A DNA stretch of 64,000 nucleotides, taken from NCBI RefSeq assembly GCF_016908315.1, contig NZ_JAFBDQ010000005.1:1-64000 (forward strand), read 5' to 3'. The position numbers and the translations under genes were made by a program. Within the stretch, counting starts at the first letter, position 1. The number at the start of each line of letters is the position of its first letter. The notes beneath the pieces are model-generated. The model searched no databases. It was given only the letters and a program-made list of their open reading frames with translations, and was not told the origin of the DNA. This DNA is from Halanaerobacter jeridensis (lineage in GTDB: Bacteria > Bacillota > Halanaerobiia > Halobacteroidales > Halobacteroidaceae). This document shows, piece by piece, positions 1 to 53,835 of the stretch.

Positions 1-534
1 ACCACTAGAAGTGCTCTTATCCCTCAGCTGATTAATCGCCTTAAACTTATCAATCAACAGATTGAAGAAATCAAAGAACAATTAGCTGAAAAAATTGATG
101 ATAACCCCTATCAATTAACTACTATACCTGGATTAGGTTACACTTTAGCAGCTCAATTCATTGCTGAAATCGGTCATATTGACCGTTTTGATTCTGCTAA
201 TGAATTAGCTAGGTATGCTGGATTAGCACCAGCTGAATACAGCTCAGGCAAATCTCAGCAAAGTTCTAGGAAAAAATACGGCTGTCGTAACCTAAACCGG
301 GCTTTCTATCTACTAGCTTTACAACAAATTGGCACTACTAGAAATAACAGACCTAAAAATCCAGTTGCCTATAAATACTATCAGAAAAAATTAGCTGAGG
401 GTAAATCACGCAAAGCTGCTTTAGTCTGCTTAAAAAGACGCTTAGTTGATATTATTTATGCTATGATGCGAGACAAATCTACCTATGAATTACCTGAAAC
501 TCCTGAGTACGAAGTCTTAAATCAAGCCAGTTAA
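1..534 (+). CDS. IS110-family transposase, C-terminal part (5' end outside window)
   Basis: Open frame from window start to TAA at 532-534. Translation has the IS110/IS116/IS902 C-terminal domain signature (IPGLGYTLAAQFIAEIGHIDRF...ARYAGLAPAEYSSGKS...NRAFYLLALQQI). Not in the ORF track because its start lies outside the window. Confidence 0.75.
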   Translation, partial: TTRSALIPQLINRLKLINQQIEEIKEQLAEKIDDNPYQLTTIPGLGYTLAAQFIAEIGHIDRFDSANELARYAGLAPAEYSSGKSQQSSRKKYGCRNLNRAFYLLALQQIGTTRNNRPKNPVAYKYYQKKLAEGKSRKAALVCLKRRLVDIIYAMMRDKSTYELPETPEYEVLNQAS

Positions 535-640
535 TTGATAATCTCTGAATTAGCTGCCATTAGTTAAAAAATCTATAATTATTGCTTTGGGGATTGCTAG
601 GTCAAATTAGTTTCCATTTTTTAACTTGTAAAACTTTTAC
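1..640 (+). mobile_element. IS110-family insertion sequence (right part) at the distal end of the cassette array
   Basis: Transposase 3' end plus about 100 bp of non-coding right end. IS110-family elements lack terminal inverted repeats; the end position is approximate. Confidence 0.5.
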
Positions 641-673
641 TTGACATAAGACGTCTTATATTTCACTTTAAAT

Positions 674-1255
674 TCAAAATTTATTACACAACTCATCTAA
701 CTTATCTCTTAATTCTTTTACCTTTTCTTTACTAACTTCGAAATTAACCTTTTTACTTTCCCCATCATTACAAGCGATATCTAATTCAATTAAAGCTGTA
801 GTAATATTATGTCCTAATTCTTCTTTTTTTATTACTTGATAATTTAATGACCTTAACTTATCATTTAAACACGAAATATGAAATAATAATTTTTGTTTGA
901 ATTCATCAGTCAAAATAATTTCACGTAATTTTTCAATTAAGTATGAATTTAATTCAATAAAATCTTTATCAAAATTCTTTTCTCCTAAAGATTTTTTCTC
1001 TATAAATGCTTCAATAAGTTCAGTTAAAATATGTAACGTATATTTTAAATAAAATTCATTCAAATCATATTCTTCTATATATTCATTATATGAAGTCTCT
1101 GATACTCCTATTCCGTATGACATATAATTTACATCCAATCCTATAATCCCTTTTTTATTCATTTCATCTAAACAATTTACAATTTCATCACACTTTTCTT
1201 TATCTGTTAATAAATTTTCTATTTCTTCTTGTTTTTCAAAATTAATTTCTGACAT
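674..1255 (-). CDS. hypothetical protein (distal cassette gene)
   Basis: 193-aa ORF with GGAGG RBS (rc of 1262-1268). No recognisable motifs; acidic and coiled-coil rich. Confidence 0.5.
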   Translation of the reverse strand: MSEINFEKQEEIENLLTDKEKCDEIVNCLDEMNKKGIIGLDVNYMSYGIGVSETSYNEYIEEYDLNEFYLKYTLHILTELIEAFIEKKSLGEKNFDKDFIELNSYLIEKLREIILTDEFKQKLLFHISCLNDKLRSLNYQVIKKEELGHNITTALIELDIACNDGESKKVNFEVSKEKVKELRDKLDELCNKF

Positions 1256-1505
1256 ATTATTCCTCCTCGCATAAGTTTATAATTTGAATTTTTTATAAAC
1301 TATACTCATATGTAAGTAATACTATATATAAGTATATTTTCCTGCATATATAGATAACTTTTTTATTTTCTTATTTTTAATAATAACAAAAATATTAATG
1401 AATTTACAGTTAAAATTATATTTTAAAAATAAAATTTTTATTAGAACCATTAATAAAAATATTCAAAACTACATAAAAAACAAAACTTCTAAAATAGGAT
1501 TTCGG

Positions 1506-1641
1506 ATAACGTCCCTGCGATTCGCGACGTCTCGCTACTGCTCCTATACTTTGCCTATTCTCCTAAATTTCATAAGTCAGTGCTTAACCCTGCACTATCC
1601 TCTAGACCTAGATGTCGCTAATCGCATGTTATATGATGGAG
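1506..1641. repeat. attC-like structured repeat, copy 1
   Basis: ATAACGTCCCTGCGATTCGCGACGTCT...AGATGTCGCTAATCGCATGTTAT. Ends are inverted repeats. The variable stem segment TGCGATT/AATCGCA is compensatory relative to other copies. Confidence 0.65.
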
Positions 1642-2526
1642 CGACCCGGAACCACAAAGATAAAATTCTGCTTTTGCTATTATCTTAGCTAAAAATCATT
1701 TCTTACGCATCACAAAGCAGTTCTATTCCTAGCCCAAAACTATTTACCTGAGGGAAAGGGGGCGAAACTTCTATCTTCCTAATAAGTGAATCTTTTCTCT
1801 CAATTATGTAATTCTTGCTAATATGTATAAACCCTTCATAAAATAATCCAATTTTCAAAAAGATAAAAATGGGTTTTCAACTTTCACATTCAAAATGAAA
1901 TTAAGGAGTTAGCTAATACAATTTTGCCATGCTATTCCAAGTTTTTTATCGTCTATCACAATGCTCTTTACTAACAAATTAAAAAGCTCTCCATTTAGCC
2001 TAACTCCTGTCCAGCACCGCACTGGTTTTCCTAACGAAAAGACTAGCCTAATAATTCCTAATCAAGGATAAAGAAAGGTTTTCTTCTGCCCCCTTTCCCT
2101 TTTCCAATTTTCTCTGCAAGATAGAAGTTGACTACATCAATCTAGCCATGCTATACCACAGATTATTTAATAACTCTTATGCTCTTTATTCTGCATTGAA
2201 AATTTATAAGTAGTCACACTTCTATCCTAAGAATAATCCAAATAAATAAACTTGCACAATGATAAAGAGGTTAGGAAATGTTATAAAAATATTGCTGAAG
2301 CTTTTTTTGAATTGAATCTTTTACCTGAGGTTTTAATGAAAGATTTTTAACCCTAATTTGTTTTCTTTTTAAATAAGTAACTAAAAAAGCTCTATTATTT
2401 TCCCTAATTTGCTATTAAAAATCTTAAACCTATAAAAAAATCACTATTTCCTAACCTTCCCTCGAAAATAGTGATCTCTTACTGGTTGGATTCTATAACT
2501 GAAAATCAATATCTTAGCTCTTTCAT

Positions 2527-2653
2527 ATAACGTCCCGCAGCTTCGCGACGTCCCATCAATGCTCTATAACCTAATCTAATGCAACCTTAATTTCATAAGT
2601 CAGTCCTAACCTCATTTATACTCTACAATTGGATGTCGCTAAGCTGCTGTTAT
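2527..2653. repeat. attC-like structured repeat, copy 2 (divergent centre)
   Basis: ATAACGTCCCGCAGCTTCGCGACGTCC...GGATGTCGCTAAGCTGCTGTTAT. Stem GCAGCTT/AAGCTGC and GTCC/GGAT co-vary. Central loop shares 'atttcataagtcagt' with copies 1, 3, 4 and 5. Confidence 0.65.
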
Positions 2654-2679
2654 GCGAAGTGCTAAATCTCAGATAACAA

Positions 2680-4140
2680 CTATATATCACTTGAAAAATA
2701 ATTATCAATGATTTTCCGTAATTTCTTTACTCCCTTCTCTTTGGCTTTATTTCGAATTTCTTCTTTGGAAAAATAATTTATTTGATATTTATTAGTGCTT
2801 TGAGCGCGTTCTTTCAAATAATCTTCTGCTTCTTTTTCAAAACCACCAGTAGACCATAACTCAAAAATGAGCTCTTTATTTCTATGTTCATCTTCTTGAA
2901 AAGTCCAACTTCTTATTTTAGGAATATTATCTGTCACCCATTTTTTAGCAAACCCCTTTCCTATTGGGGCTTTCTTTCCCTTGCATTCAACAATCCTTAA
3001 TCTATCGGGATTATCATAAGCAAGAACATCAATTTCTCTTCTTTCCCCACTATCTTTATCAAGAACTACCTCATTGATTTTAATATATATAGATGATTGA
3101 GAATAATAATATCCTACAGCCAATTCAAAAAGTGCTCCTCTTAAATTAATAGACGCTCCTCTTAAATCAGATAATTTATCAAATAAATCAAAATATTTAT
3201 CAGGATTTTTACTAATAACTGCAGAAGCATTTTCGATTACATTTACTAATGACTTCAATACTTCAGTATATTGGTTATCAAATAATTCATTAACAAATCC
3301 AATAAATATTCCTCGAGATTTAAGCAACTGAAAAGCTTCCTTCTCTAAATCTTCTACTATAATAATAGGGATAAAAGAAGAAACATTATGATTCTGTTTG
3401 ATAATATCAATTTTATTTAAAAAATATTCAACATGCTCTTCTAATACTTCTTTTCCCAGTAAAATATCTGCCACAATAAATCCTGGTGAATCTTCATTTC
3501 TTAAATTAAGAATATAAGATGGAGCTGTAAAACCCCACTGAAATTTATAAAATTCCGCATTATTAGATAACTTTTCTGCATCATTATAAGAAGTGAAATT
3601 TATTTTTTTCGCCCAATCTTCAAAATTAGAAATAGTTAGTTCTTTTGCTAACTCAATTGCTTTAAATCTGGTATGAGTTGAACTAACTTCTATTAATGAA
3701 TTCAACTGATATATATCATCAGTATATTCAACTAAAACATCTAATTGTAGCAAATCATCAATAATAGAGCTAGCCGGTTTATGTCCTTTTAACTTTTTAA
3801 TCGGAGAACAAGTATAACTAGGTAATTGATTCATATCTATAAATCCATCATGAAATAATACTGCTTGTATAAAAAAATGATACGCTTTAGCATGAGTTTC
3901 AAAACTGTTTACTAAATTTTGATAAAAAAGTTGAGTCTTAAAATGATCACTTAAATAAATAAATTGTTGGTTATTATTAAAAGAAATAGTCTTCATTTTT
4001 TTCACAGGAGAATTTGCCCGGGAAATAGCTTTTCTAGCTGCATCATTAGTTATTTCATGTTTTTCTTCTAATTTTTTAGCTAATACTCCGGAAACCATTG
4101 GACCATCATCTTGAAGAATCTTTTCTATACGTGTTGTCAT
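2680..4140 (-). CDS. PD-(D/E)xK nuclease-domain protein with N-terminal wHTH-like region (candidate defence cassette)
   Basis: 486 aa. C-terminal ...EIDVLAYD...RIVECKGKK... fits the D...(D/E)xK restriction-endonuclease-fold motif. Single-gene cassette between repeat copies 3 and 2. Confidence 0.5.
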   Translation of the reverse strand: MTTRIEKILQDDGPMVSGVLAKKLEEKHEITNDAARKAISRANSPVKKMKTISFNNNQQFIYLSDHFKTQLFYQNLVNSFETHAKAYHFFIQAVLFHDGFIDMNQLPSYTCSPIKKLKGHKPASSIIDDLLQLDVLVEYTDDIYQLNSLIEVSSTHTRFKAIELAKELTISNFEDWAKKINFTSYNDAEKLSNNAEFYKFQWGFTAPSYILNLRNEDSPGFIVADILLGKEVLEEHVEYFLNKIDIIKQNHNVSSFIPIIIVEDLEKEAFQLLKSRGIFIGFVNELFDNQYTEVLKSLVNVIENASAVISKNPDKYFDLFDKLSDLRGASINLRGALFELAVGYYYSQSSIYIKINEVVLDKDSGERREIDVLAYDNPDRLRIVECKGKKAPIGKGFAKKWVTDNIPKIRSWTFQEDEHRNKELIFELWSTGGFEKEAEDYLKERAQSTNKYQINYFSKEEIRNKAKEKGVKKLRKIIDNYFSSDI

Positions 4141-4320
4141 TTTATGTCACACCTCACTATTTATAAATAAACAATCAATCAAGCGATCAATTAATTTTTT
4201 TAGTTTTTCAATACCGACAATTCAATAGTTCATAGAGCTGGAAAAAAATACAATGTCACACTTTCCTTTTCAAACTAAAAAATTGTCACTAAAATATGTA
4301 ACTAAGATTTAGCATTTCGC

Positions 4321-4449
4321 ATAACGTCCCTGGGCTTCGCGACGTCTAGGCACTGCTCCTATACTTTTGCCTATGCTCCTAAATTTCATAAGTCAGTGCT
4401 GCAACCCTGCCATATCCTCTGTGCCTAGATGTCGCTAAGCCCATGTTAT
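4321..4449. repeat. attC-like structured repeat, copy 3
   Basis: ATAACGTCCCTGGGCTTCGCGACGTCTAGG...CCTAGATGTCGCTAAGCCCATGTTAT. Confidence 0.65.
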
Positions 4450-4489
4450 CTGACGTAGCCATTGTCGAATAAAAACTACTGTACTTACA

Positions 4490-6280
4490 TCAAAAATTTT
4501 GGTTATAATTAAGATTAGGTAAGGCAATTAAACAACTTGCTTTTTTATGATATCCATAGCGATTAAGCCCCATATTAGCAAATAAAAACACATCCTTCTT
4601 GGCTCTGGTAATCCCAACATAAAAAATGCTAAGCACTTCTTCAAATTCTTCTCTTAAAGAAGACAAAAACTGGAATTTACAACATTTATCAAACTCTTCC
4701 TTCCCTTGTTTAGCACTACACAACTTGCAAAGTCCTTTTGAAGTAGGAAATGAGTATGCTGTAACTCTAGGAATGTATACATAATCCCATTCTAATCCTT
4801 TGGCACCATGTATTGTAGTTATTGTTATCCTTTCATCAATTTCATTCATTAAATGCTTTAAAGATTCATTTTCTAACACAAAAGAAATCTTTTCAAACTT
4901 TTTATTTTTTGATATATTTTCTGCTTTAGTTTTTTGAAACAATTTTTTTAATAACCTTAACAAGGAATTATATATATACATTGTATCATCTTCATATATA
5001 TCTTCAGTAAGCAATTCCTCCATTCTATCAACAACTCTACTTAGTACACGTTTTGCAATAGATTGATTGATACCACTTTCTTCCAAAAACACATCTAAAG
5101 CTTTCTCATGAAAAGCTACATATTCTCTGTCAGTATCATTGAATAATCCATTAAAATAGGAAATAGATTGTTCTTCTAATTTTTCAATTACCTCATTAGT
5201 ACAATAACTAGCTCGACACAAAATAGATACATCATCAGAATCACTAATCTTATCTTTAATATGTTCTACAATAAACTCGGCTTCTTTATGATTGCTCTTA
5301 AAAAATTTAAAATTCATTTCAGCTTCTTTATCAAAAGAATCCATCTCACTATAATTTAAAAAGATACTACGAATATAACTGTCTAATTTTTTCATCTTTT
5401 CATTATCATCAAATCTATGATTTGTTTTGAATCTCATTTCTTCCATATTAAATTCCTCAGCCATATGGTCAAACAAATCAGGAATAGCTCCAATAAAGCC
5501 ATAAATTTTCTGAATTTTATCTCCCATTAAAATAATTTCGTTTTCTCCCATTAATTTTGTAAGCAATCTATATGATAAATAATTAGTATCTTGAAATTCA
5601 TCAACAATAATCATTTTATAATATTGCTGATAAAAATTTCTAATTGATTTCTTATTTAATAAATAATAGGAAAAAAGCAATAATCCATTAAATGTAATAA
5701 CTTCATTAGGGATTAATATTTCGTTTAAAATCTCAAAATAATTGCTTTCTAACTTTTCAACATTATCAATATTTTCTTTTTCAAACCCATTAAAATTTTT
5801 AATACATTTGTCATACTCTGATAAAATGTCCATTTCCGAAGATGATAGATAATCCTTTAGCACTGCTGAATAATCGGATACTATTCTAAAAGAATCCATA
5901 GCCCCCAAATTTTTATTTAATAAATATCCATGTTTTTTTAACAAAATTCTTGCTAAATTATGATAATTTGCTACATCAAGTTTCTTGGATAAATCAACAT
6001 TTTCATCATCTAATAATTCAGGTAATAATTCATTAGTATCTTTTTTAATTTTATTAGCTGCATTTACGCTAAATGTAAGGGCTAATATTTTTTTATGATG
6101 TATTGTCGGATCTGTAACTATTTTGTAAGCAATTTTACTAATCATTGTTTTGGTTTTCCCATATCCAGCTGGAGCAGTTACAATTATTCTTTGTTTTTGA
6201 CTGAAAATAAAATCAAGTTGCTCTTCATCTTTTCCATGAATATCCTCAATTGATTTAGAAATAGCTTTTTTATTCTTCAT
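4490..6280 (-). CDS. gajB: Gabija GajB, UvrD/PcrA/Rep-like SF1 helicase
   Basis: 596 aa. Walker A TAPAGYGKTKT, motif II MIIVDEFQDTN, motif V/VI TTIHGAKGLEWDYVYIP. Overlaps upstream gajA by 11 nt. Confidence 0.75.
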   Translation of the reverse strand: MKNKKAISKSIEDIHGKDEEQLDFIFSQKQRIIVTAPAGYGKTKTMISKIAYKIVTDPTIHHKKILALTFSVNAANKIKKDTNELLPELLDDENVDLSKKLDVANYHNLARILLKKHGYLLNKNLGAMDSFRIVSDYSAVLKDYLSSSEMDILSEYDKCIKNFNGFEKENIDNVEKLESNYFEILNEILIPNEVITFNGLLLFSYYLLNKKSIRNFYQQYYKMIIVDEFQDTNYLSYRLLTKLMGENEIILMGDKIQKIYGFIGAIPDLFDHMAEEFNMEEMRFKTNHRFDDNEKMKKLDSYIRSIFLNYSEMDSFDKEAEMNFKFFKSNHKEAEFIVEHIKDKISDSDDVSILCRASYCTNEVIEKLEEQSISYFNGLFNDTDREYVAFHEKALDVFLEESGINQSIAKRVLSRVVDRMEELLTEDIYEDDTMYIYNSLLRLLKKLFQKTKAENISKNKKFEKISFVLENESLKHLMNEIDERITITTIHGAKGLEWDYVYIPRVTAYSFPTSKGLCKLCSAKQGKEEFDKCCKFQFLSSLREEFEEVLSIFYVGITRAKKDVFLFANMGLNRYGYHKKASCLIALPNLNYNQNF

Positions 6281-7997
6281 TATCTTCTACTCCATTCATT
6301 AATTCTTCTATAATATCTTTAAAAACTTCAGGCACATTAGTAACATATTTTGCTAAAAGAGAACCATTTAAAGCATTTTTTTTATTCCTTAATTGTTTTA
6401 TTTCTTCTTCTTGATAATTTAGCATAATTCTATTTTTAACTTCCTCAGGAACCTCATATTCTTCAGGAGCTTCTATAAAAAGTCTGGGACTAAATTCTTC
6501 CATCTCCTTTTTTAAATAATTTATAAAAGGAGTAATTTTATCTGCTTCCTTTTGATAAAGCAAATAATCATTAAAATCAAAACTATTATATATTTCTGCT
6601 TCAAAATCTATTTCATTTGTGAAAAATATTCCATCTTCATTTTTATATTTTTCTTCTTGATCTTTATCAATTATAGCTATAGCTCTAATATCATATGCAT
6701 CATAAAGTTTCATACATCTAAGAACACTACCAGCCCCATCAAGTTTTATAATTCCAATACTTTCTTCATCAATATCATATCCTATTCTTTCAATAAGTAC
6801 TGGTAAAGCTCCGAATTCTGTATCACCTTCTACAAGAACTACAGCTTTACTAAACATAGCTTCTTTAATATACATAAAACTTCTTATTAAGTGTTTATGA
6901 GTTTTATCATTAAAATCTATATTTCTACCACACTTTACATTAACTTTATCATTAACCTTATATAATCTAGTAATTTGTTTATAGTTATTTAATAATATAT
7001 TAGGAGAATGTGTAACAACAAACACTTGTCCAATCAAACCATCTATTTCAAATAATTCTTCGAGAAGTTTGATAAAGTCTTCATTCTTATTATCAATAAT
7101 TCTTTTTATACCTTTAATTAATGCTCTTTGTCTATATGGATGTTGGTGTATTTCAGGTTCATCTAAAGCAATTACAATTGGTAAATATCTATTTCCCTCA
7201 TCATCATTAATTAAAATATTATTAAATTTTTCTTCTTTCTTATTAGTTTTTAATTTTATTAACAAATCTAAAATATATAAAAATATATTAAATGAATATT
7301 GTAAGCCATCACCAAGTTCATTTAAACTTTTACCTGTATTGTCTCCTACCTCTAAAATTCGACTAACAATATTCTGCTCATCATCATCCACAAATGCTTC
7401 AATTACTTCTCCTTTTAACCCATTTATTTTATATATTTTTTTATTTAAATCATCAACAATTTCATTAACATCACTAATATTAATTAAATCTAAATTTTCT
7501 ATATCTCTTTCCTCCAAAATGTTTTCAACTAAGTAATTTAAAACTTTTCCAGTTCCAGTGTTTTTTGAAAAATCTATTTCTTTGCTAGGATTCCTTAATG
7601 ACGAATAATAAATAAAATTGATTTTTTTAATAGTTATTGGATTTATATATGTATCTGCCGGAGATGCATGTTTATATTCAATTCGACTATAAATATCTTC
7701 TTGAGTTGCTATAATAGTTAAACTATATTCATCATCAATATCAAAATTATTTTCAAAAAAACCCAATTCATCTTTATTGTAACTTATAGTGAATTTAACA
7801 GATATCTCCTTCTTTGTATCATCAAAATGTTCTTCATAGAATTTACCCTTACGTAATAAACAATTAAGCAACTCCATTACATTAGTTTTACCAACATTAT
7901 TTTCTCCAACTAAAAAATTAATTTCCTCATCAAATTTAAAATTTAGTCCGCTTAAATTCTTGAAATTTTTTACTTCTTTTATTTCACTTACAAACAT
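6270..7997 (-). CDS. gajA: Gabija GajA, OLD-family ATPase with C-terminal Toprim nuclease
   Basis: 575 aa. ABC-type Walker A LVGENNVGKTNVMELL, D-loop/Walker B VIALDEPEIHQHP, and Toprim AVVLVEGDTEFGALPVL. Class-2 OLD gene immediately upstream of a UvrD-like helicase equals Gabija architecture. Confidence 0.8.
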   Translation of the reverse strand: MFVSEIKEVKNFKNLSGLNFKFDEEINFLVGENNVGKTNVMELLNCLLRKGKFYEEHFDDTKKEISVKFTISYNKDELGFFENNFDIDDEYSLTIIATQEDIYSRIEYKHASPADTYINPITIKKINFIYYSSLRNPSKEIDFSKNTGTGKVLNYLVENILEERDIENLDLINISDVNEIVDDLNKKIYKINGLKGEVIEAFVDDDEQNIVSRILEVGDNTGKSLNELGDGLQYSFNIFLYILDLLIKLKTNKKEEKFNNILINDDEGNRYLPIVIALDEPEIHQHPYRQRALIKGIKRIIDNKNEDFIKLLEELFEIDGLIGQVFVVTHSPNILLNNYKQITRLYKVNDKVNVKCGRNIDFNDKTHKHLIRSFMYIKEAMFSKAVVLVEGDTEFGALPVLIERIGYDIDEESIGIIKLDGAGSVLRCMKLYDAYDIRAIAIIDKDQEEKYKNEDGIFFTNEIDFEAEIYNSFDFNDYLLYQKEADKITPFINYLKKEMEEFSPRLFIEAPEEYEVPEEVKNRIMLNYQEEEIKQLRNKKNALNGSLLAKYVTNVPEVFKDIIEELMNGVEDNEE

Positions 7998-8132
7998 TTT
8001 TTTTGCCCCCGTTTCAATTTAAGTAATTAATCTTCTAATTTAAATAAAATTAGTTCATCGATTAAAATCAAGAAAAATTATATTTGATCTTAATCTCTTT
8101 GGATAACCTCTTTTTCAAAATGGCTATGTCAG

Positions 8133-8259
8133 ATAACGTCCCTGGGGTTCGCGACGTCTCGGGACTGCTCCTCTATTCTGCTCATCATCCTAAATTTCAT
8201 AAGTCAGTGCTACAACCCTGCCCTATCCTCTTACCTAGATGTCGCTAAGCTCATGTTAT
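8133..8259. repeat. attC-like structured repeat, copy 4
   Basis: ATAACGTCCCTGGGGTTCGCGACGTCT...AGATGTCGCTAAGCTCATGTTAT. Confidence 0.65.
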
Positions 8260-8425
8260 GTGATGTAGTTAGCAAAAGATATTTTCTATATTCTCCAAAA
8301 CCTATGCAAACACTTCTAAACTATGCTAAACCTATTCTACTCACCTTTGCTAATGAGACTTTTCTTTCACAATCCTTCCCAAACAGCTCTAATTAGAGTT
8401 CTCTTACAACTATAATTCTATAACT

Positions 8426-8671
8426 TTAAAAAAAGAATAAACCGAAAGAGATAGAGTAGATATCCTTCCCTAAAATGGTTTCTAAATGTGTTTTTAACTT
8501 CACTATACTCAAAAATTTGCCTCTAAACCTGAGCATTTTCGCCGAAAAATTATACCAACGCCCAAAATATAGCCTAGGCATCGCTACTGGACTAACTTCA
8601 AACAAATATACTTCCACATAACTTATATAAGCCTTAACTCTATATTTCTTTTCCTTAATATAAAAAAGCAT
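8426..8671 (-). CDS. small hypothetical ORF in the short cassette between repeat copies 4 and 5
   Basis: 81-aa ORF with a weak RBS. The cassette may instead be non-coding. Confidence 0.2.
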   Translation of the reverse strand: MLFYIKEKKYRVKAYISYVEVYLFEVSPVAMPRLYFGRWYNFSAKMLRFRGKFLSIVKLKTHLETILGKDIYSISFGLFFF

Positions 8672-8753
8672 CTACTCTATCTCTTGACCGGTTATAGAAT
8701 TCTGCAGCATTTTCTATTCTAATACAAACAAACCCATTTGCTAACTATGTCAC

Positions 8754-8882
8754 ATAACGTCCCTGGGCTTCGCGACGTCTCGGGACTGCTCCTATACTTT
8801 TGCTTATCCTCATAAATTTCATAAGTCAGTGCTGCAACCCTGCCCTATCCTCTATACCTAGATGTCGCTAAGCCCATGTTAT
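8754..8882. repeat. attC-like structured repeat, copy 5
   Basis: ATAACGTCCCTGGGCTTCGCGACGTCT...AGATGTCGCTAAGCCCATGTTAT. Nearly identical to copy 3. Confidence 0.65.
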
Positions 8883-8923
8883 CCGACGCCCGGCTTCTAT
8901 AAAAAATATATCCCTCTTTTAAC

Positions 8924-9781
8924 CTAGTAACTTTTTAATATATCTAAATATTCACTTTTTGTTTCATTATCATATAAACCCTTCGCTTCATTTAGAGTTT
9001 CTATAGCCCAGTCTACATATTTTTGATTTACTTTTTTACTATTTTCTATTTTTTCTATAAATCTTTCTATTTTATTTCTCAATTTATTGTTTACTGATTT
9101 TAATTTTTCTTCCAATTGTTCATTCTCTTCTGCTAGTTCTTCATTCTCTTCTGCTAGTTCTTCATTCTCTTGCTCTAATTGTTCTTCAATTTCTTTTAAC
9201 ATTTCTAATCTTTGTTTTAACCGTTGTGTTTCCTTCTTTTCTTGTTGTGTTTCCTTCTTTTCTTGTTGTGTTTCCTTCTTTTCTTGTTGTGTTTCCTTCT
9301 TTTCTTGTTGTAATTTCTTATCAGACTGCTCAACTGCCTCATCTAATGCACTTAACTCTTCATCACTCCATTCAGTACTTTCCTTACTACTCTCACCTTC
9401 ATTTAATATTTCTTTTATTTTGCTTTTAACCCAACTAGGAGCTTCTATAAAATCTTTTCTCAATCTTTTATTCTCTGATTTCAACAACTCTTTATAAGCT
9501 AAATCTAAATTAGAAAGATTATCTTTAGTCAATATATCTATTTCAATTAAATTTTCTGCGAATTCTCCTGGTTTCATAAATTTATCTTCTAATTTGCTTA
9601 TTTCTTCTAATTCGTCATATAATTTAGTTTTAGCCTTATTAGTACTTAATTCAGCTTGTTTTAGTTTCTCTTCTGTTAAACCATAATCCTCATTTAACTT
9701 AGTAGTTACATCATCTGCTAAAACATTCACTGTCAAAACCAATAGCAATACAATCAATAATAAAACACTTAACTTCTTCAT
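8924..9781 (-). CDS. secreted coiled-coil protein with tandem heptad-like repeats
   Basis: Signal peptide MKKLSVLLLIVLLLVLTVNVLA. QQEKKET x4 encoded by 21-bp tandem repeats at 9226-9310, and ENEELAEENEELAEENEQLEE. Ends with TAG. Confidence 0.6.
   Translation of the reverse strand: MKKLSVLLLIVLLLVLTVNVLADDVTTKLNEDYGLTEEKLKQAELSTNKAKTKLYDELEEISKLEDKFMKPGEFAENLIEIDILTKDNLSNLDLAYKELLKSENKRLRKDFIEAPSWVKSKIKEILNEGESSKESTEWSDEELSALDEAVEQSDKKLQQEKKETQQEKKETQQEKKETQQEKKETQRLKQRLEMLKEIEEQLEQENEELAEENEELAEENEQLEEKLKSVNNKLRNKIERFIEKIENSKKVNQKYVDWAIETLNEAKGLYDNETKSEYLDILKSY
9226..9310. repeat. 21-bp tandem repeat (x4) inside the coiled-coil protein gene
   Basis: tgtgtttccttcttttcttgt repeated four times in a row. 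Confidence 0.85.
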
Positions 9782-9864
9782 AATCTGCCTCCCCTAAATT
9801 ATGGTTTTTAATGTTTTTAATATGTATTTCTTTCAATAAAAATAGCAGCTAAGCCGGGTTTCGG

Positions 9865-9990
9865 ATAACGTCCCTAGGGTTCGCGACGTCTAGCTAAACC
9901 CTCCTATAACTTGTCCATCCTCTAAAACTCAATATTCAATTCCTAACCTTCCCTAACCTCTCAACCTAGATGTCGCTAACCCTATGTTAG
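9865..9990. repeat. attC-like structured repeat, copy 6 (different central region)
   Basis: ATAACGTCCCTAGGGTTCGCGACGTCTAG...CTAGATGTCGCTAACCCTATGTTAG. Stem TAGGGTT/AACCCTA. Confidence 0.65.
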
Positions 9991-10014
9991 ACGATGTTTG
10001 CTTGATAAAAATCA

Positions 10015-11046
10015 TTACCTTCTCTCTATTTCTTCAATTATTAATTTTGGGAATTTATATTCAATTACAGCAATAGCTTCTTTTAAAAGCGGATAAGAAA
10101 AATCTCCTTTTGAACTAGTAATCATTGACATCCAATGAGTTGGATAATATCGAACTAACATACCAATCGCATATGAAATAATGTAAATAGTTAATAAAGA
10201 AGAAAAATTTAAATTATCAGCTAAAGGGGCAACAGCAAATATATTATTTTTTCTATCATTTTTTACAAACGGAACTCTATTATAAAACTCTTCATTAGAA
10301 GAATGAATTATTCTAAAAGATATATTTTCTAAATTACCTGCAAAATTATGTTTTTCCTTCTTTCTCGTTTTAATGTCTTTTGGTAAACCAAAGTCATCTC
10401 TAACTAATTCCTTATTAGGTAACCCAATACTAGTTTCTAACACTGCAATATCTGTTTGTTCAGATAAACAAAAAACAATTGCATTATAACATTTAGAATA
10501 ATCATCAAAAGTATTCTCATATATATTTTGTAATTCCGGAATCCTCGCTAATATTTCTTTAATAGTAATTAAATTATTACTATCTTCTTTACCCCCATAT
10601 TGTTTTATTTTAGTTCGATTTGGATATGGAGCTATATATATTGAACTTCTCTCAATATTTTCTGTAACCTCCCATAACTTAGAAAATGTGCCAGAAGTAA
10701 TCTCAACATTCAAATTAGGTACTTCTTCTATTCCATCTGAAAGTTTTTGGGTCCAATTTTTCACTCTTAATCCATGAGATGGTTTAAGGCTAGTTACTCT
10801 TGCAAAAGGATCTAAAAATAAAATTAATCCACGACAAAATGCAACTACTCCGTAATAAAACAATAGAGGAGATACAACATTATCAGCCTGTTTTGCACTG
10901 GAAAAATATTCTCTTCCTTGAGTAATATGAGAAACTATTTCCTCTGCTTTTCCAGCCGAAAGTTCTCTATCATGCTTCTCTTCATAAAATTTTGAAACTA
11001 AATCTTTGCTTTCATACAAAGATATCTTAGACCAAACATTTTTCAT
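10015..11046 (-). CDS. YaaC-like family protein
   Basis: 343 aa. Pattern W..IS.YES.DLV.KF...H...QGREYF..A.....V.PLLFYYG.V and C-terminal PLLKEAI.VIE.KFPKLII match my recollection of B. subtilis YaaC-family proteins. Confidence 0.5.
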   Translation of the reverse strand: MKNVWSKISLYESKDLVSKFYEEKHDRELSAGKAEEIVSHITQGREYFSSAKQADNVVSPLLFYYGVVAFCRGLILFLDPFARVTSLKPSHGLRVKNWTQKLSDGIEEVPNLNVEITSGTFSKLWEVTENIERSSIYIAPYPNRTKIKQYGGKEDSNNLITIKEILARIPELQNIYENTFDDYSKCYNAIVFCLSEQTDIAVLETSIGLPNKELVRDDFGLPKDIKTRKKEKHNFAGNLENISFRIIHSSNEEFYNRVPFVKNDRKNNIFAVAPLADNLNFSSLLTIYIISYAIGMLVRYYPTHWMSMITSSKGDFSYPLLKEAIAVIEYKFPKLIIEEIERR

Positions 11047-11069
11047 TATTTACCTCCCTTTTTCCCTTG

Positions 11070-11528
11070 TCACAAATTTACTTTTTCTAACTGTGTAGGC
11101 CAAGCTCCTTGACCATTTCCTCCTTTAAAATAAACTCTATAATTTTTTCCTATAGAAGAAACAACATGTTTAGTAATATACTTCTTTTCTTCACCATCAA
11201 TTTCAACTTTACTTTTCTTTTTAACTTTGTCTCCAGGCTTTAAATTTAATTCTTCAATTGCTTGCTTATTATTTTCTTTTAATTTATCCTCAATTTTTGC
11301 TGAGGCAACTCTCAACGAATTGTTTTTAAGATCTAAACCCAATTCTTCTCCAAATTCAATTTGTTTTTCAGTAGACTCATTAAATTCCATATTAGGATCA
11401 ATTGCTGGTTCAACTGCATCATAAATCCTTGCACTTGCTACATTACGAGTATCATTAGAAATATCAACTTCTAATTTAATTGCTATATTCTTTTGAAATG
11501 GTGTTGGTTTTTTATGAACATCATTCAC
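11070..11528 (-). CDS. hypothetical protein, co-cassette partner of the YaaC-like gene
   Basis: 152 aa with internal duplication (RNVASARIYDAVE / LRVASAKIEDKLKE). Same cassette as 10015-11046. Confidence 0.45.
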   Translation of the reverse strand: MNDVHKKPTPFQKNIAIKLEVDISNDTRNVASARIYDAVEPAIDPNMEFNESTEKQIEFGEELGLDLKNNSLRVASAKIEDKLKENNKQAIEELNLKPGDKVKKKSKVEIDGEEKKYITKHVVSSIGKNYRVYFKGGNGQGAWPTQLEKVNL

Positions 11529-11577
11529 AAATAAATTTCCTCCTTTAAAAAATATAATATAACAAAAGCAAATGTCG

Positions 11578-11705
11578 TCTAACGTCCCTGGGGTTCGCGA
11601 CGTCTAGCTCAACCCTCTTATAACTTGTCCTTCCTATAAAACTTTCATATGTAATCTCTACCTTCACCCATCCTCCTAGCCTAGATGTCGCTAACCCCAT
11701 GTTAT
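11578..11705. repeat. attC-like structured repeat, copy 7 (same subfamily as copy 6)
   Basis: CTAACGTCCCTGGGGTTCGCGACGTCTAG...CTAGATGTCGCTAACCCCATGTTAT. Stem TGGGGTT/AACCCCA. Confidence 0.65.
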
Positions 11706-11955
11706 GTGATGCTTCTGATCGGTTAATAAAAAATAATCCCCAATAAAATTAAAACCCTCATTAAAATTTAGCATAATAATAAATACTCATATCAAACAAC
11801 TATAATTCGAATTATTTTATACTAATATTATATTCAACCTTACTTTTACTCCTCAATTTGCAACTCAACTCCTGGTATATAAACATTAATCCTTTCTATT
11901 TTAAATCTAATTCTATTTTCTAATTCTTTTTTCACAATATCTTGAATTGTTTGCC

Positions 11956-12648
11956 CTACTTTATAAACTTTTTTCTAGAATCAACAATTATATTTAAGTT
12001 AACAGTAATTCTTTCACCTTGTCTTTCAATCTCAACACCTTTAGATAAATCTTTTAAACCTAATATATCCTTAAGCGCATTCAAAAAACTACCTCCATTA
12101 GTATCTACTACCCCATCTATCTCTCTAACAACTATTCCCACTAACTCTTCTATCTTGTTATATTTTTCATCTTCAATACTAATTGAATTCAATTCAATAT
12201 TATTTTCATTTCCTAATTTATATTTAGGAAATAATCTATTACTTGGATCATCTGGTTCAGTATAATCAAATTTTTTTATATTAACTTTAACCTTGTTAAC
12301 TTCAATTCCTGTTTTATGTTTCAATCTATATTTTACAGTATCTCTTATTTCTTGGGCTACTATATTACTTTGCATTTCATCTTTTATTATTGCATTAATT
12401 TCAATAATAAATCCGTCATCAATTATTCTATATTCTATTCCCTTAGATAAATTATTTATTCCTAATAATACACGAATATCATCAAAAAAACTTCCCTGCG
12501 TATCAATTACTCCATCTATTTCTCTAACAATAACCCCAATTAAAATTTTTATTACTTCTTTAGAAATCCTAATCTTTCCTTTGTTATTTTTTTGTTCAAT
12601 ATCAATATCCTTAGATTTTTTCATAATTGTTTTGCTCTCCTTTTGCAA
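11956..12648 (-). CDS. Asp23/Gls24-family protein with two Asp23 domains; 3' end apparently frameshifted
   Basis: Two copies of VIKILIGVIVREIDGV.DT...LSKGIE. The conserved C-terminal continuation VYKVGQTIQDIVKKELENRIRFKIERINVYIPGVELQIEE* is in another frame at 11846-11958, after an A6 run. Confidence 0.65.
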   Translation of the reverse strand: MQKESKTIMKKSKDIDIEQKNNKGKIRISKEVIKILIGVIVREIDGVIDTQGSFFDDIRVLLGINNLSKGIEYRIIDDGFIIEINAIIKDEMQSNIVAQEIRDTVKYRLKHKTGIEVNKVKVNIKKFDYTEPDDPSNRLFPKYKLGNENNIELNSISIEDEKYNKIEELVGIVVREIDGVVDTNGGSFLNALKDILGLKDLSKGVEIERQGERITVNLNIIVDSRKKFIK

Positions 12649-12691
12649 TATAGATAAAAAGTTTTATAAGAAGTTTCACATAACTTATTTT

Positions 12692-12753
12692 TTAACGACA
12701 CAAAAATCATAATTTATAGTTGTTCCTTATATTTACGATGATTGTGTCGTTAA
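12692..12753 (-). promoter_or_regulatory. perfect hairpin immediately 3' of the recombinase gene (terminator and/or attI-like site)
   Basis: TTAACGACACAAAAATCAT...ATGATTGTGTCGTTAA. It contains GTCG/CGAC cores that resemble the conserved GCGACGTC/GATGTCGC boxes of the attC-like repeats. Confidence 0.35.
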
Positions 12754-12760
12754 AATCAGA

Positions 12761-13801
12761 TTAGTTGATTAAATTATCTAACGGACTTTCTATGTTTGCA
12801 ATATCTCTTTTGCTGACATGAGTATATATTTCAGTAGTAGTAGAACTCTTATGTCCTAATAATTTTTGGATGTATCGTAAATCAGTTCCTTGCTCTAATA
12901 AATGTGTTGCAAAAGAATGTCTTAAAGTATGTACAGAAACATCTTTAGTAATATTAGCTTTTCTACAGGCTTTTTTGAATATTCTTTGTACTGATCTTGT
13001 AGTTAAGTGTTCTCCTTCTTTGCCTCCAGGAAACAACCTCTTTTCGGGTTGATATAATTGATGATACATTTTTATCTGTTTCAGACAAGATTCTGATAAG
13101 ATCGTATAGCGATCTTTTCTCCCCTTCCCTTGATTAATTTTAATTAGCATTCTATCACTATTAATATCATCCATTTTTAGTTTAACAACTTCACTAACCC
13201 TTAATCCAGCAGAATAAACTACATACAAAATTGTTTTATGTTTGGGGTTATCTAGACTATCTAAAATCTTCGCTACTTCTTTTTTACTTAATACTTCCGG
13301 TAACTTTTTTTCTTTTTGTGGTCGTGATAAAACAACTGAAATATCTTTATTATCCAATACTTCCCGGGCCAAGAACTTAATAGCACTAATCCCCTGGTTA
13401 ACAAATGAATGTGATAAATCTTGGTCTAATAAATCCAACAAATAATCCTTAATCTCAGCATCAGTCACTCGTGATAACTTCTTATTAATAAATCGTGCAA
13501 ACTGCCTAATATGACTCATATAAACTTTTTCCGTCTTTTCACTATAACCTTCTAAATTTAACTGATTTTTTAGTTCATTAATTACTAGTTCATTTTCTAA
13601 AGCACTGGAAATTATAATTCTTTCATTAACAAATTTCTCTTTTAACTGTTCTAAAATATCATAATCATAAGGTACTAACCATGCTCTAGCTTTAGGGGCC
13701 CATTCCCGCTTATTAATTTCTTTAATTTTTTTAATTTTTCTTTCCGAATAATCAAATTTAACAGCTAGTTGTCCTTCTAACTTTTCAATTCTTAATGTCA
13801 T
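12761..13801 (-). CDS. tyrosine-type site-specific recombinase (XerD-like core, about 100-aa N-terminal extension); putative cassette-array integrase
   Basis: 346 aa. Box II HTLRHSFATHLLEQGTDLRYIQKLLGHKSSTTTEIYTHV, R at LRVSE, catalytic Y in EIYTHV, C-terminal SPLDNL. Only about 58 aa between KDR and HTLRHS, so no IntI-type additional domain is evident. Confidence 0.85.
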   Translation of the reverse strand: MTLRIEKLEGQLAVKFDYSERKIKKIKEINKREWAPKARAWLVPYDYDILEQLKEKFVNERIIISSALENELVINELKNQLNLEGYSEKTEKVYMSHIRQFARFINKKLSRVTDAEIKDYLLDLLDQDLSHSFVNQGISAIKFLAREVLDNKDISVVLSRPQKEKKLPEVLSKKEVAKILDSLDNPKHKTILYVVYSAGLRVSEVVKLKMDDINSDRMLIKINQGKGRKDRYTILSESCLKQIKMYHQLYQPEKRLFPGGKEGEHLTTRSVQRIFKKACRKANITKDVSVHTLRHSFATHLLEQGTDLRYIQKLLGHKSSTTTEIYTHVSKRDIANIESPLDNLIN

Positions 13802-14037
13802 AAATTAGCTCCTCTCTCGCACGCATAAAATTAAATCTAACAAAAAATAGATTTTATAACATTATAACCAAATTTAAGAGCTAATATACATTAAAATATA
13901 TTTGCAACTAGCTTTTCTTATTATATTATTGATTATATACATTTATAGCATATTCTAGTTATACTTTTATTTTTCTCCACTAAAAAATATTTTCCTGCAC
14001 ATTCATCGTTAAAATCAATTTATTCTACTTATTTTTA

Positions 14038-14073
14038 CAAAAAAATAAAAGCTATCAAAATAATTTTGATAGC
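14038..14073 (-). terminator. Rho-independent terminator
   Basis: gctatcaaaa taa ttttgatagc followed by a T-run on the minus strand. Confidence 0.6.
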
Positions 14074-14154
14074 AAATTAAAGTTTATATTCTTTTTTATC
14101 TATAAACTAGGGCCAACAACAAATAAGTTACTCAATCAAAATTAATATTTATTA

Positions 14155-14820
14155 TTAAACATCATTCTTCTGAACTAATTGATTTAAACCTTCAGCTACA
14201 TCTGCTAATTGCTGAGAAGAAGCTGCAATGTCATCAGACATATGAGTTATTTCTTGTGATACATCCAAAACTTCATCACTATTTTCAGCTAAAGTTTGGG
14301 TGGAATTGTTTATAGCTTCTATTGCTGCATTTAAAGCTAATAAATTAGTCTGTTCTGCTATATTATCAATCAATTTAATTATTTTCCCAACTTCTTCAGA
14401 ATTATGATCAAGCTGATTAATCGTTTTTACTGTTTGACTTACAGAATCAGTAATGTCTTCCATACTGTCAATTGCTTTTTGAACTTTTTTGCTACCCAAC
14501 TGAACTCTCTTATTAGTTTTTTGAGCAAATTCTGCTACTTCGTTAATACTATTAGATATACCGTGTATTTTAAGTGCCATTTTTTCAATCAAAGAAGAAC
14601 TAGTTTCAATTGAGGCATTCCCTTCTTCAGCAGCAGCTGATAATTGTTGACTAGTAGCAGTAACTTCTCCAACTTTTTCTTTTATATTATTAATAATGAT
14701 ATTTAAATTCTGACTTAAATCTAAAGCTTCAGCCTGTTTTTCTTCTGCCAAATTTATTAAATGAATTGATTTATTAATTAACAAAATAGCAACAATTCCA
14801 GTGAAAATAAAAATAACCAT
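14155..14820 (-). pseudogene. methyl-accepting chemotaxis protein remnant (TM plus partial signalling domain)
   Basis: 221 aa: one TM helix then [16 protein letters not shown]...[11 protein letters not shown]. Lacks the HAMP/sensor region and the ARAGE.GRGFAVVA segment. Compare intact MCP at 37424-39019. Confidence 0.5.
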
Positions 14821-22909: not shown

Positions 22910-22910
22910 C

Positions 22911-53416: not shown

Positions 53417-53835
53417 TTTTTATCCCACTCCCTTTTCTATATAAGTAAGACAGTTAAAGTTAAAAGAATCTTTGCTAAAGATATTTTCTTTTAAAAGAGA
53501 ATATCTCTATAAGACCATTCCTGCCCCACACTATTAAAGTAAGATTACCTTAGATGTAGATGAAATTTTTTCGCAGCGACTTTAAATCTAGTTTGCAATA
53601 AGTCTTAACGCAGAATAATAAAAAATCATTTTATCTACATCTGGAAAGCTACACTTTATATAAAAAAGACCCCTACTCGCTGAGAAGATAAAGTAATCCC
53701 CAAGCAAGTAGGAGCCATCAATTGCTATATTTAGCAATAGTTAAAGGCGAGCTCCATCGCCTACCATTTAATTTTAGCAGATTAATTATAAGATTGCAAT
53801 CAAAATTTGTAGACTAATTATTTTACTGCCTTTTT

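Follow-up and report, generated by a model that had tools for sequence, protein, structure and literature searches.

The first 64,000 nucleotides of contig NZ_JAFBDQ010000005.1 of Halanaerobacter jeridensis (hereafter, the window) contain seven repeats of ~127 nt, all on the plus strand within positions 1506-11705, next to the gene of a tyrosine recombinase. The structure of the repeats, their position relative to genes and the comparison with related loci suggest, with a probability that we put at roughly three in four, that they are the attC-like sites of a chromosomal, integron-like gene-capture platform in this member of the Halanaerobiales (Bacillota). The platform is integron-like in its working and stands outside the family that is defined by the integron integrase, IntI: its recombinase, which carries a HARP-like domain at the N-terminus, is distinct.

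A hairpin maintained by compensatory changes

When the DNA is folded as a single strand, the same hairpin is obtained for all seven plus-strand copies (c1 to c7; Table 1). At its base is an outer stem, ATAAC(G)/(T)GTTAT (the R box), which is followed on the 5' arm by a 4-nt TCCC bulge; above the bulge comes a 7-bp variable stem, the first five pairs of which vary by copy, then a CxT mismatch, then a 9-bp stem, GCGACGTCT/AGATGTCGC, that includes one G.T pair (the L box), and finally a loop of ~75 nt. The folding z-score ranges from -2.9 to -6.4 in six copies and is -0.6 in c4. The spacers of the variable stem differ between neighboring repeats (TGGGC, GCAGC, TAGGG, TGCGA), and the R and L boxes, two G.T pairs and one loop motif show hardly any variation. 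This motif, TTCATAAGTCAG (e.g., window 1566-1577), is nearly invariant in most Halanaerobiales copies and could be a protein-binding site. The box TTCGCGACGTC occurs seven times in the window compared to 0.06 occurrences expected by chance, and GATGTCGCTAA has seven exact matches, and one match with a single mismatch elsewhere, compared to 0.64 expected; a covariance model search of the 64 kb yielded no eighth copy. As full 7-mers, the ends depart from the integron core consensus, with two mismatches between GGATAAC and RYYYAAC and one between GTTATGT and GTTRRRY, and the AAC...GTT triplets are nearly invariant.

A first-pass annotation, made from the letters of the window, had described most of these features. 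It quoted complementary 7-nt pairs for c1, c2, c3, c5, c6, and c7, all of which are correct, as is the switch that it noticed in c2, to GTCC/GGAT from the GTCT/AGAT found elsewhere. Its statement that complementarity is always kept applies to six of the seven copies; in c4, which it did not quote, the arms are TGGGGTT/AAGCTCA, with one G.T and one GxG apposition. The boxes that it considered invariant are shared by the copies and yet vary at the ends, given that c7 starts with CTAAC and c6 ends with GTTAG. The unpaired GTCCC assigned to the 5' arm does exist as a bulge, which has to be shortened to TCCC as the G forms a G.T pair, and the division of the loops into two subfamilies (c1-c5 and c6-c7) breaks down at c2, the loop of which is a third type outside c1-c5.

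Covariation was analyzed in two sets of copies. The first set consists of 37 copies from 15 sources, collected with a genome-scan pattern and aligned with MAFFT blind to structure; 89.6% of the cells in this alignment pair, and there are 108 cells with a double change, compared to 44.5 +/- 5.2 in shuffled alignments (0/500 reaching the observed count) and 7-27 with a slid partner. The second set consists of 69 copies recovered by a covariance model, including divergent ones without exact boxes; here, in an alignment fitted to the structure of the model, the double-change cells number 270 compared to 100 +/- 13 (0/500) and 17-42, respectively, and compensatory changes are seen also inside the 'invariant' stem. 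Thus, covariation persists far above the shuffled and slid controls as more copies are aligned, first 37 and then 69. The comparison of sequences establishes the structure of the repeats, with a qualification to the earlier proposal that selection acts on structure rather than on sequence: selection on structure is statistically demonstrated, and sequence is strongly conserved as well, so that 'structure plus sequence', as in the Vibrio cholerae repeats (VCRs) of the genus Vibrio, is the better description.

The distribution of covariation along the stem bears on the position of the crossover. The inner stem pairs have a mutual information of 0.3-1.2 bits (z 4.4-9.2); two outer R-box pairs, the entropy of which (H about 1.1-1.25) is similar to that of the inner pairs, have 0.06 and 0.17 bits (z 1.3 and 2.4). 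Outer pairs that vary without covariation are to be expected if the neighboring cassette supplies the outer 5' half-box, and this is the signature expected of an exchange point that would lie between the outer ATAAC box and the variable stem. Because GGGACGTTAT is invariant, the exact phosphodiester bond of the crossover cannot be placed. With respect to the strand, two G.T pairs are invariant on the plus strand (67/67) and the variable stem contains 9 G.T compared to 3 A.C combinations, which lends modest support to the plus strand as the one that folds. By the established geometry of tyrosine recombinases, a hairpin is cut on its 5' arm when the enzyme is bound at the base. Since the crossover box is located on the 5' arm of the plus strand, this geometry points to the plus (non-coding) strand as the probable substrate.

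The covariation is equally compatible with pairing in RNA, and copies located 3' of ORFs (open reading frames) would be co-transcribed with them, so the repeats could be viewed as RNA elements between genes, either 3' stabilizing or terminating stem-loops or small RNAs, with the cassette pattern being secondary. We regard this explanation as distinctly improbable. Read as mRNA, the repeats would have A.C mismatches in place of the two invariant G.T pairs, and it is the antisense strand that the wobble bias favors; a terminator scan detected neither a T-run nor a terminator call at the repeats, and Rfam has no match at or near them (gathering thresholds for the whole window; E <= 0.1 for positions 1-14200). 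Moreover, RNA elements would leave unexplained the conserved outer boxes that do not covary, the GTTAT junction of the attI-like region, the reshuffling and the strict link to the recombinase described below. A secondary RNA role of the repeats is possible. A scan for promoter and terminator consensus sequences found no enrichment and no site on the repeats, and is uninformative on the expression of the cassettes. The only Rfam match in the window is a fluoride riboswitch (RF01734) at 53702-53770 on the minus strand (48.7 bits compared to a gathering score of 34).

Cassettes, the attI-like region and movement between loci

All genes of the repeat region are located on the minus strand. Seven cassettes follow one another head-to-tail (1506-12683), co-oriented with the recombinase and directly downstream of its gene, each consisting of one or two ORFs, or none, and a 3' repeat (Table 1). 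The repeat comes close behind the ORF, and the next ORF starts 50-180 nt past the repeat. The association of the repeats with cassette-like ORFs, which the first-pass annotation had proposed as a test, is borne out: every copy stands just 3' of an ORF set, in one orientation, within an array that starts from a tyrosine recombinase gene.

Table 1. Features of the recombinase-headed array in the window (the plus strand of the repeats is the best-folding, non-coding or 'bottom' strand)
Feature	Position	Strand	Content
Repeat c1	1506-1632	+	core ATAAC...GTTAT
Repeat c2	2527-2653	+	core ATAAC...GTTAT
Repeat c3	4321-4449	+	core ATAAC...GTTAT
Repeat c4	8133-8259	+	core ATAAC...GTTAT
Repeat c5	8754-8882	+	core ATAAC...GTTAT
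Repeat c6	9865-9990	+	core ATAAC...GTTAT
Repeat c7	11579-11705	+	core ATAAC...GTTAT
Cassette 7	1506..2526	-	~890 nt, no ORF >51 aa; repeat c1
Cassette 6	2527..4320	-	486-aa ORF 2680-4140, function not assigned; repeat c2
Cassette 5	4321..8132	-	GajA 6270-7997, GajB 4490-6280; repeat c3
Cassette 4	8133..8753	-	81-aa ORF 8426-8671; repeat c4
Cassette 3	8754..9864	-	285-aa ORF 8924-9781; repeat c5
Cassette 2	9865..11578	-	152-aa ORF 11070-11528, YaaC-like gene 10015-11046; repeat c6
Cassette 1	11579..12683	-	Asp23-family gene 11956-12648; repeat c7
attI-like junction box (putative)	12676..12684	-	GTTATGTGA, preceded by A-rich run; first cassette starts here
Hairpin	12692..12753	-	just past recombinase stop; two inverted TTAACGACA copies; fold -17.5 kcal/mol
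Tyrosine recombinase	12761..13801	-	346 aa; residues 1-64 HARP-like, rest SAM-like DNA-binding and catalytic domain

Between the recombinase gene and the first cassette lies a region that we read, from its sequence, as an attI-like site. The A-rich run and the GTTATGTGA box are found ~75 nt past the recombinase stop codon, and the preceding hairpin contains TTAACGACA motifs that resemble the L boxes of the repeats; it probably serves the predicted site as an accessory or recombinase-binding element. The pattern TTMRCGACR occurs 17 times in the window (14 times in L boxes of the repeats, twice behind the recombinase gene and once elsewhere) compared to 1.16 expected occurrences, and equivalent motifs, together with a GTTAT/GTTAG box, are present behind the recombinase gene in seven other loci.

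Evidence of cassette movement comes from a metagenomic contig (L001) that encodes a recombinase 87% identical to that of the window. The genes upstream of it, for a DUF3686 protein and a metallo-beta-lactamase, match the window at 86-89% DNA identity, and downstream there are nine copies of the repeat with a different set of cassettes, duplicated and reordered. The homology of the flanks spans the recombinase gene and the hairpin and stops exactly at GTTATGTGA (window 12684-12676, L001 11120-11128). In L001, the first cassette comes after AATAA joined to GTTATGTGACATAG, and its tandem duplicate after GGGAC joined to GTTATGTGACATAG at the end of a repeat. Cassette 4 of the window (8758-8124) is 87.7% identical to L001 11120-11756 and stands both first and second in the L001 array. 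The ORF-less cassette 7 has four paralogues in that array (12.3-15.4 kb and 19.7-20.4 kb). Since the homologous blocks begin at GTTAT and take in the downstream repeat, the mobile unit consists of an ORF and its 3' repeat, like an integron cassette. The paralogous DinB cassettes of Caldalkalibacillus point to the same junction, since they come after AAAAATAT joined to GTTATCGG at attI and after AAGAAC joined to GTTATCGG behind a repeat. Thus, the same cassettes are present at other positions in a related array, and these alignments establish, at the sequence level, both the boundaries and the movement of the cassettes.

Hairpin-forming intergenic repeats also bring to mind selfish dispersed elements, such as REP (repetitive extragenic palindromic) sequences, MITEs (miniature inverted-repeat transposable elements) or PATE-like (palindrome-associated transposable element) repeats, spread by a transposase, for example, that of the IS110-family element at the start of the window (1-528); IS91 and IS-like (insertion sequence-like) elements are present in related arrays as well. 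Nevertheless, this origin is extremely unlikely because the seven copies in the 64 kb form a single block with a single orientation from the recombinase and no copies elsewhere, the same arrangement recurs at 8/8 recombinase loci, and what moves is a gene with a repeat, as opposed to a repeat alone.

Among the cassettes, number 5 encodes the Gabija defense pair, recognized by PADLOC (525 bits for GajA and 594 bits for GajB) in agreement with Pfam, with the genes for GajA (ATPase-TOPRIM) and GajB (UvrD-like helicase) adjacent to each other. The 285-aa ORF of cassette 3 contains internal 21-nt tandem repeats (7-aa units) at 9107-9327. Cassette 7 belongs to an ORF-less family of ~1 kb (window 1634-2526), with one member in the window and four in L001 that show 62-96% identity and no Rfam match. 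At the distal end of the array, a 193-aa ORF with a COMM domain (674-1255) follows the last repeat and the IS110-family gene comes ~150 nt beyond it; positions 1-528 (plus strand) correspond to the 3' part of this transposase gene (C-terminal Transposase_20-like). No attC-like palindrome is present in window 1-1500, and the array may end at c1 or may have been truncated by the IS. On the other side, a 1624-aa DUF3686/DUF7902 protein and its 679-aa partner (window 18035-24950) are conserved upstream of the recombinase in L001. Far from the array, a 465-aa ORF (window 62568-63965) resembles the anti-phage proteins ProA and Hhe in their helicase part.

The recombinase, its N-terminal domain and the distribution of its arrays

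The recombinase is 100% identical to a Halanaerobacter jeridensis protein that NCBI names 'site-specific tyrosine recombinase/integron integrase'. It passes the NCBIfam model NF040815 ('XerA-type tyrosine recombinase/integron integrase'), with a score of 227.8 compared to 220, fails the integron integrase model TIGR02249 (218 compared to a cut-off of 265, with the match in two pieces), and scores 144.7 with PRK15417, for which the cut-off is 435. The IntI-specific domain (alpha-I2 region) is absent, residues 245-263 (19 aa) being aligned with residues 179-239 (61 aa) of VchIntIA (2a3v), and W157 of VchIntIA, which stacks on an extrahelical base, is aligned with an Asn. The nearest relatives with solved structures are archaeal XerA and VchIntIA: the latter is at the top by sequence among solved structures, and archaeal XerA equals it as a match by sequence and by fold. 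The C-terminal SPLD-like tail of the recombinase aligns with that of IntI.

Some of these observations, namely the 'integron integrase' in the protein name, the top rank of VchIntIA and the alignment of the tail, together with the AAC...GTT ends kept by the repeats, would suit an ordinary integron, with an IntI as the recombinase and, as the repeats, standard attC sites of the sort that annotation tools already call. We consider this very unlikely, given the subthreshold and divided TIGR02249 match, the short stretch at the place of the IntI-specific domain, the Asn aligned with W157, and the equal score of archaeal XerA; moreover, the recombinase gene is co-oriented with the cassettes, the attI-like site lies on its 3' side, and the bulge occupies the opposite arm. 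In published surveys, furthermore, essentially no complete integrons are reported for Firmicutes, with none found in 2016 and a single one, in Limnochorda, in 2022, the reason being unexplained.

The likeness of the recombinase to Xer raises another alternative, in which each half-repeat (R box, spacer, L box) is a core site recombined as a duplex, in the manner of dif, and the modules of the array move without a hairpin, as pdif modules do in Acinetobacter plasmids. Each half-repeat indeed includes two boxes 7-12 bp apart, as a core site would, and the attI region has inverted motifs compatible with a duplex site. We hold this alternative to be improbable all the same, given that spacers ~100 nt apart covary (z 4.5-8.7), a complementarity for which a duplex has no need. 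Two-strand exchange of the Xer/Cre type requires homology of the spacers, and the differences between neighboring spacers would block it. Furthermore, all the repeats have one orientation, unlike pdif sites, which alternate.

The N-terminal region (residues 1-64) has no Pfam match; it is conserved throughout the family, in which W34 and W41 do not vary. Because a Foldseek search with the whole protein returned recombinase cores only, this domain was modeled alone; the AlphaFold2 model (pLDDT, the predicted local distance difference test score, of 89) contains a five-stranded sheet and two helices. Among 1.8 billion representatives, the domain is found alone, in tandem, on SNF2 helicases and on other recombinases. 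Its distant relatives reach the Pfam family HARP (PF07443), with E values up to 2e-9 and 37.2 bits compared to a cut-off of 25; 8 of 25 members of the recombinase family match HARP below threshold (best E value, 4.7e-4), and the recombinase of the window itself gives no HARP match at E <= 1 and stays below the Pfam gathering score. In the full-text literature, which leaves aside subscription-only papers, we found no description of a HARP domain fused to a tyrosine recombinase.

A scan of one genome per species with the repeat pattern returned 22 loci, of which 18 are genuine and four are chance matches (~2 expected). The genuine loci are those of Orenia, Natroniella, Halanaerobium, Ca. Frackibacter and Anaeromonas, of metagenome-assembled genomes (MAGs) from Halanaerobiales and Bacillota, and of one MAG labeled Thermotogaceae. 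The chance matches (L006, L007, L010 and L019), in MAGs of Gammaproteobacteria, Acidobacteriota, Clostridiales and Planctomycetota, lack the TAACGTCCC context. The same pattern had no matches in viral contigs. Homologues of the recombinase with 49-59% identity are encoded in Orenia, Natroniella, Tindallia, Caldalkalibacillus and one MAG, and all of them head similar arrays. In Orenia metallireducens (seven copies) and Natroniella sp. (six copies), all the repeats come immediately after the gene of the homologous recombinase, and their strand is the one that does not carry the genes; recombinase and array are arranged likewise in L004, and the layout of recombinase, junction and array is common to L001, L004 and L028-L032. 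The comparison of loci thereby establishes the association of the recombinase with the array, the two being found together in 8/8 loci examined. At 49-50% identity, the homologues of Tindallia californiensis, Caldalkalibacillus salinus and a MAG labeled Ignavibacteriales are accompanied by co-oriented, small, diverse genes and by repeat families of their own, all with the organization ATAACA-stem...stem-(purine-rich bulge)-C-GTTAT on the coding strand; those of the MAG (L032) fold like the repeats of the window, with ATAACG/TGTTAT as the stem and TCYC bulging from the 5' arm on the non-coding strand.

Several loci have additional features. In Natroniella sp. ANB-PHB2 (L028, 12.6-20.6 kb), four genes for IS91-type Y2 transposases are each bounded by repeats, as if they were cassettes. 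At L017 207-245, L026 3744-3756 and L027 569-581 (Natroniella acetigena and a MAG), GGGAC GTTGT is followed by a hairpin, ATGTCCAGC...GCTGGACAT, which has the appearance of a mobile-element insertion at the R' box; all these sites are within ~250 nt of the end of the locus (the end of the contig for L017 and L026). The Thermotogaceae MAG contributes a 5.5-kb contig (L022) with at least five copies of the repeat, assigned to another phylum, which could reflect horizontal transfer or mis-binning. The array of Caldalkalibacillus salinus (L031, 7.9-21 kb) adjoins smpB and carries a gene of the aminoglycoside phosphotransferase (APH) family as well as a ParE toxin pair in inverted orientation, as is often the case for toxin-antitoxin cassettes of Vibrio superintegrons. 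A tblastn search of plasmids yielded mostly XerA-like genes that are shorter at the N-terminus. A full-length homologue with 42% identity, including the N-terminal domain, is encoded on the Chryseobacterium sp. SNU WT5 plasmid NZ_CP041688 (L033, 8965-19005), with small genes in the same orientation behind it. The locus also has a group II intron, an IS110 element and a different repeat, of 282 nt, in four copies; it may be a plasmid-borne relative in Bacteroidota.

Given this distribution, we lean, with less assurance than for the window itself, toward the view that these loci represent a widespread, undescribed integron-like family of Bacillota (Halanaerobiales, Clostridia, and Bacilli), possibly extending beyond them, which would be driven by recombinases of a sister lineage of IntI and Xer, with HARP-type hairpin recognition in place of the IntI insertion. 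No published description of such a system was found in the full-text literature, with the same proviso on subscription-only papers.

Proposed mechanism and relation to known systems

By analogy with integrons, recombination might proceed as follows. The non-coding strand (the plus strand of the window) would become single-stranded and fold into a hairpin that comprises the outer R box TCRNATAAC/GTTATNYGA, a G.T pair and the 4-nt pyrimidine bulge, then a 5-bp stem of free sequence between conserved TT/AA pairs, the CxT mismatch, the L box and the long loop. Subunits of the recombinase would occupy the R and L boxes. We infer that the HARP-like N-terminal domain, a junction- or structure-specific DNA-binding fold, could read the bulge, the mismatch or the stem-loop junction and would in this way fix the choice of strand, taking the place of the IntI-specific insertion, which reads extrahelical bases in integrons. 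A single cut on the 5' arm, in or beside the step between ATAA and C, would allow exchange with attI or with another repeat, and the resulting junction would presumably be resolved by replication.

Several considerations weigh against this reading of the repeats as attC-like sites. With no IntI insertion, and with an Asn in place of W157, the integron-style reading of extrahelical bases cannot apply, and the bulge is on the arm opposite to that of the classical extrahelical bases. The role of the HARP-like domain is hypothetical, and the recombination chemistry, including the single-strandedness, the cut position and the replicative resolution, is drawn by analogy. The alignments have biases of their own: for the 37-copy set, the invariance of two boxes was imposed by the genome-scan pattern, and the fitting of the 69-copy alignment to the model structure makes its counts lean towards structure. 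Covariation alone does not separate a DNA hairpin from an RNA hairpin, and the G.T bias outside the two invariant pairs, at only 9 to 3, is modest evidence on the strand. Finally, L001 and several other loci are metagenomic contigs.

If a family of this kind exists in Bacillota, cassette capture based on hairpins either arose on two occasions or is older than the IntI insertion, and the lack of integrons reported for Gram-positive lineages would in part be an artifact of the IntI-based definition. Integrons are a model of rapid gene capture and are operationally defined by the IntI-specific domain, the definition on which the surveys of Firmicutes were built; a platform of the kind proposed here would revise where cassette capture occurs, offer a natural comparison for the selection of folded strands by tyrosine recombinases and make questions on the origin of integrons testable. 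It would also constitute a reservoir of mobile defense and accessory genes, including Gabija, Shedu (SduA) and the APH gene, in halophilic and alkaliphilic anaerobes, and the recombinase with its sites is a potential tool for cassette shuffling in Gram-positive hosts.

Among the known systems, the closest parallels are with the sedentary chromosomal integrons, such as the Vibrio cholerae superintegron with its VCR attC sites. In both cases, a chromosomal array consists of promoter-poor, co-oriented cassettes, each of which ends in an imperfect palindrome with ...AAC and GTT... ends; the sites within an array are alike, with the stem kept by compensatory changes; the cassette boundary falls in the GTT box; a tyrosine recombinase gene stands beside the insertion site; and cassettes are duplicated and reshuffled, some of them ORF-less. 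Defense genes are part of the cargo in both (here, Gabija, as well as Shedu SduA in L001 and Orenia), as is an inverted toxin-antitoxin pair (L031). The recombinase described here lacks the IntI-specific domain and has the N-terminal HARP-like one, and its gene is co-oriented with the cassettes, with attI at its 3' end. The central spacer is paired here and unpaired in integrons, and the hosts are Bacillota, in which integrons are reported to be almost absent. The likeness to attC that was noticed at the outset is supported by the context and does not extend to the unpaired bases. Here, a single 4-nt TCCC/TCYC bulge adjoins the crossover box, on the 5' side of the bottom-strand hairpin, and is accompanied by the CxT mismatch, whereas in classical attC sites two single extrahelical bases share one side, within the 3' (R''-L'') half of the bottom-strand fold (PMC3053210).

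The arrangement of recombinase gene and cassettes in the same direction is shared with the 'reverse' integron of Treponema denticola, in which the integrase is a genuine IntI that includes the additional domain and the attC sites are of the classical kind. With respect to the Xer systems (archaeal XerA, XerC/D at dif, and pdif modules), the catalytic and core-binding domains of the recombinase are as close to XerA as to IntI, and discrete gene modules are bounded by recombinase sites in both cases. The sites themselves are different, being hairpin palindromes of ~127 nt, with covarying arms ~100 nt apart, as opposed to the 28-bp duplex dif (28-30 bp, with 11-bp arms and a 6-8 bp spacer); moreover, all sites of the array are in one orientation and the recombinase has the extra HARP-like domain. 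This domain, in turn, has the same five-stranded sheet and two helices as the HARP / UvsW-N / XPB damage-recognition fold, and its sequence relatives match Pfam HARP and occupy the N-terminus of SNF2 helicases. Elsewhere, the fold serves structure-specific DNA binding in annealing and fork-remodeling helicases, whereas here it is fused to a tyrosine recombinase.

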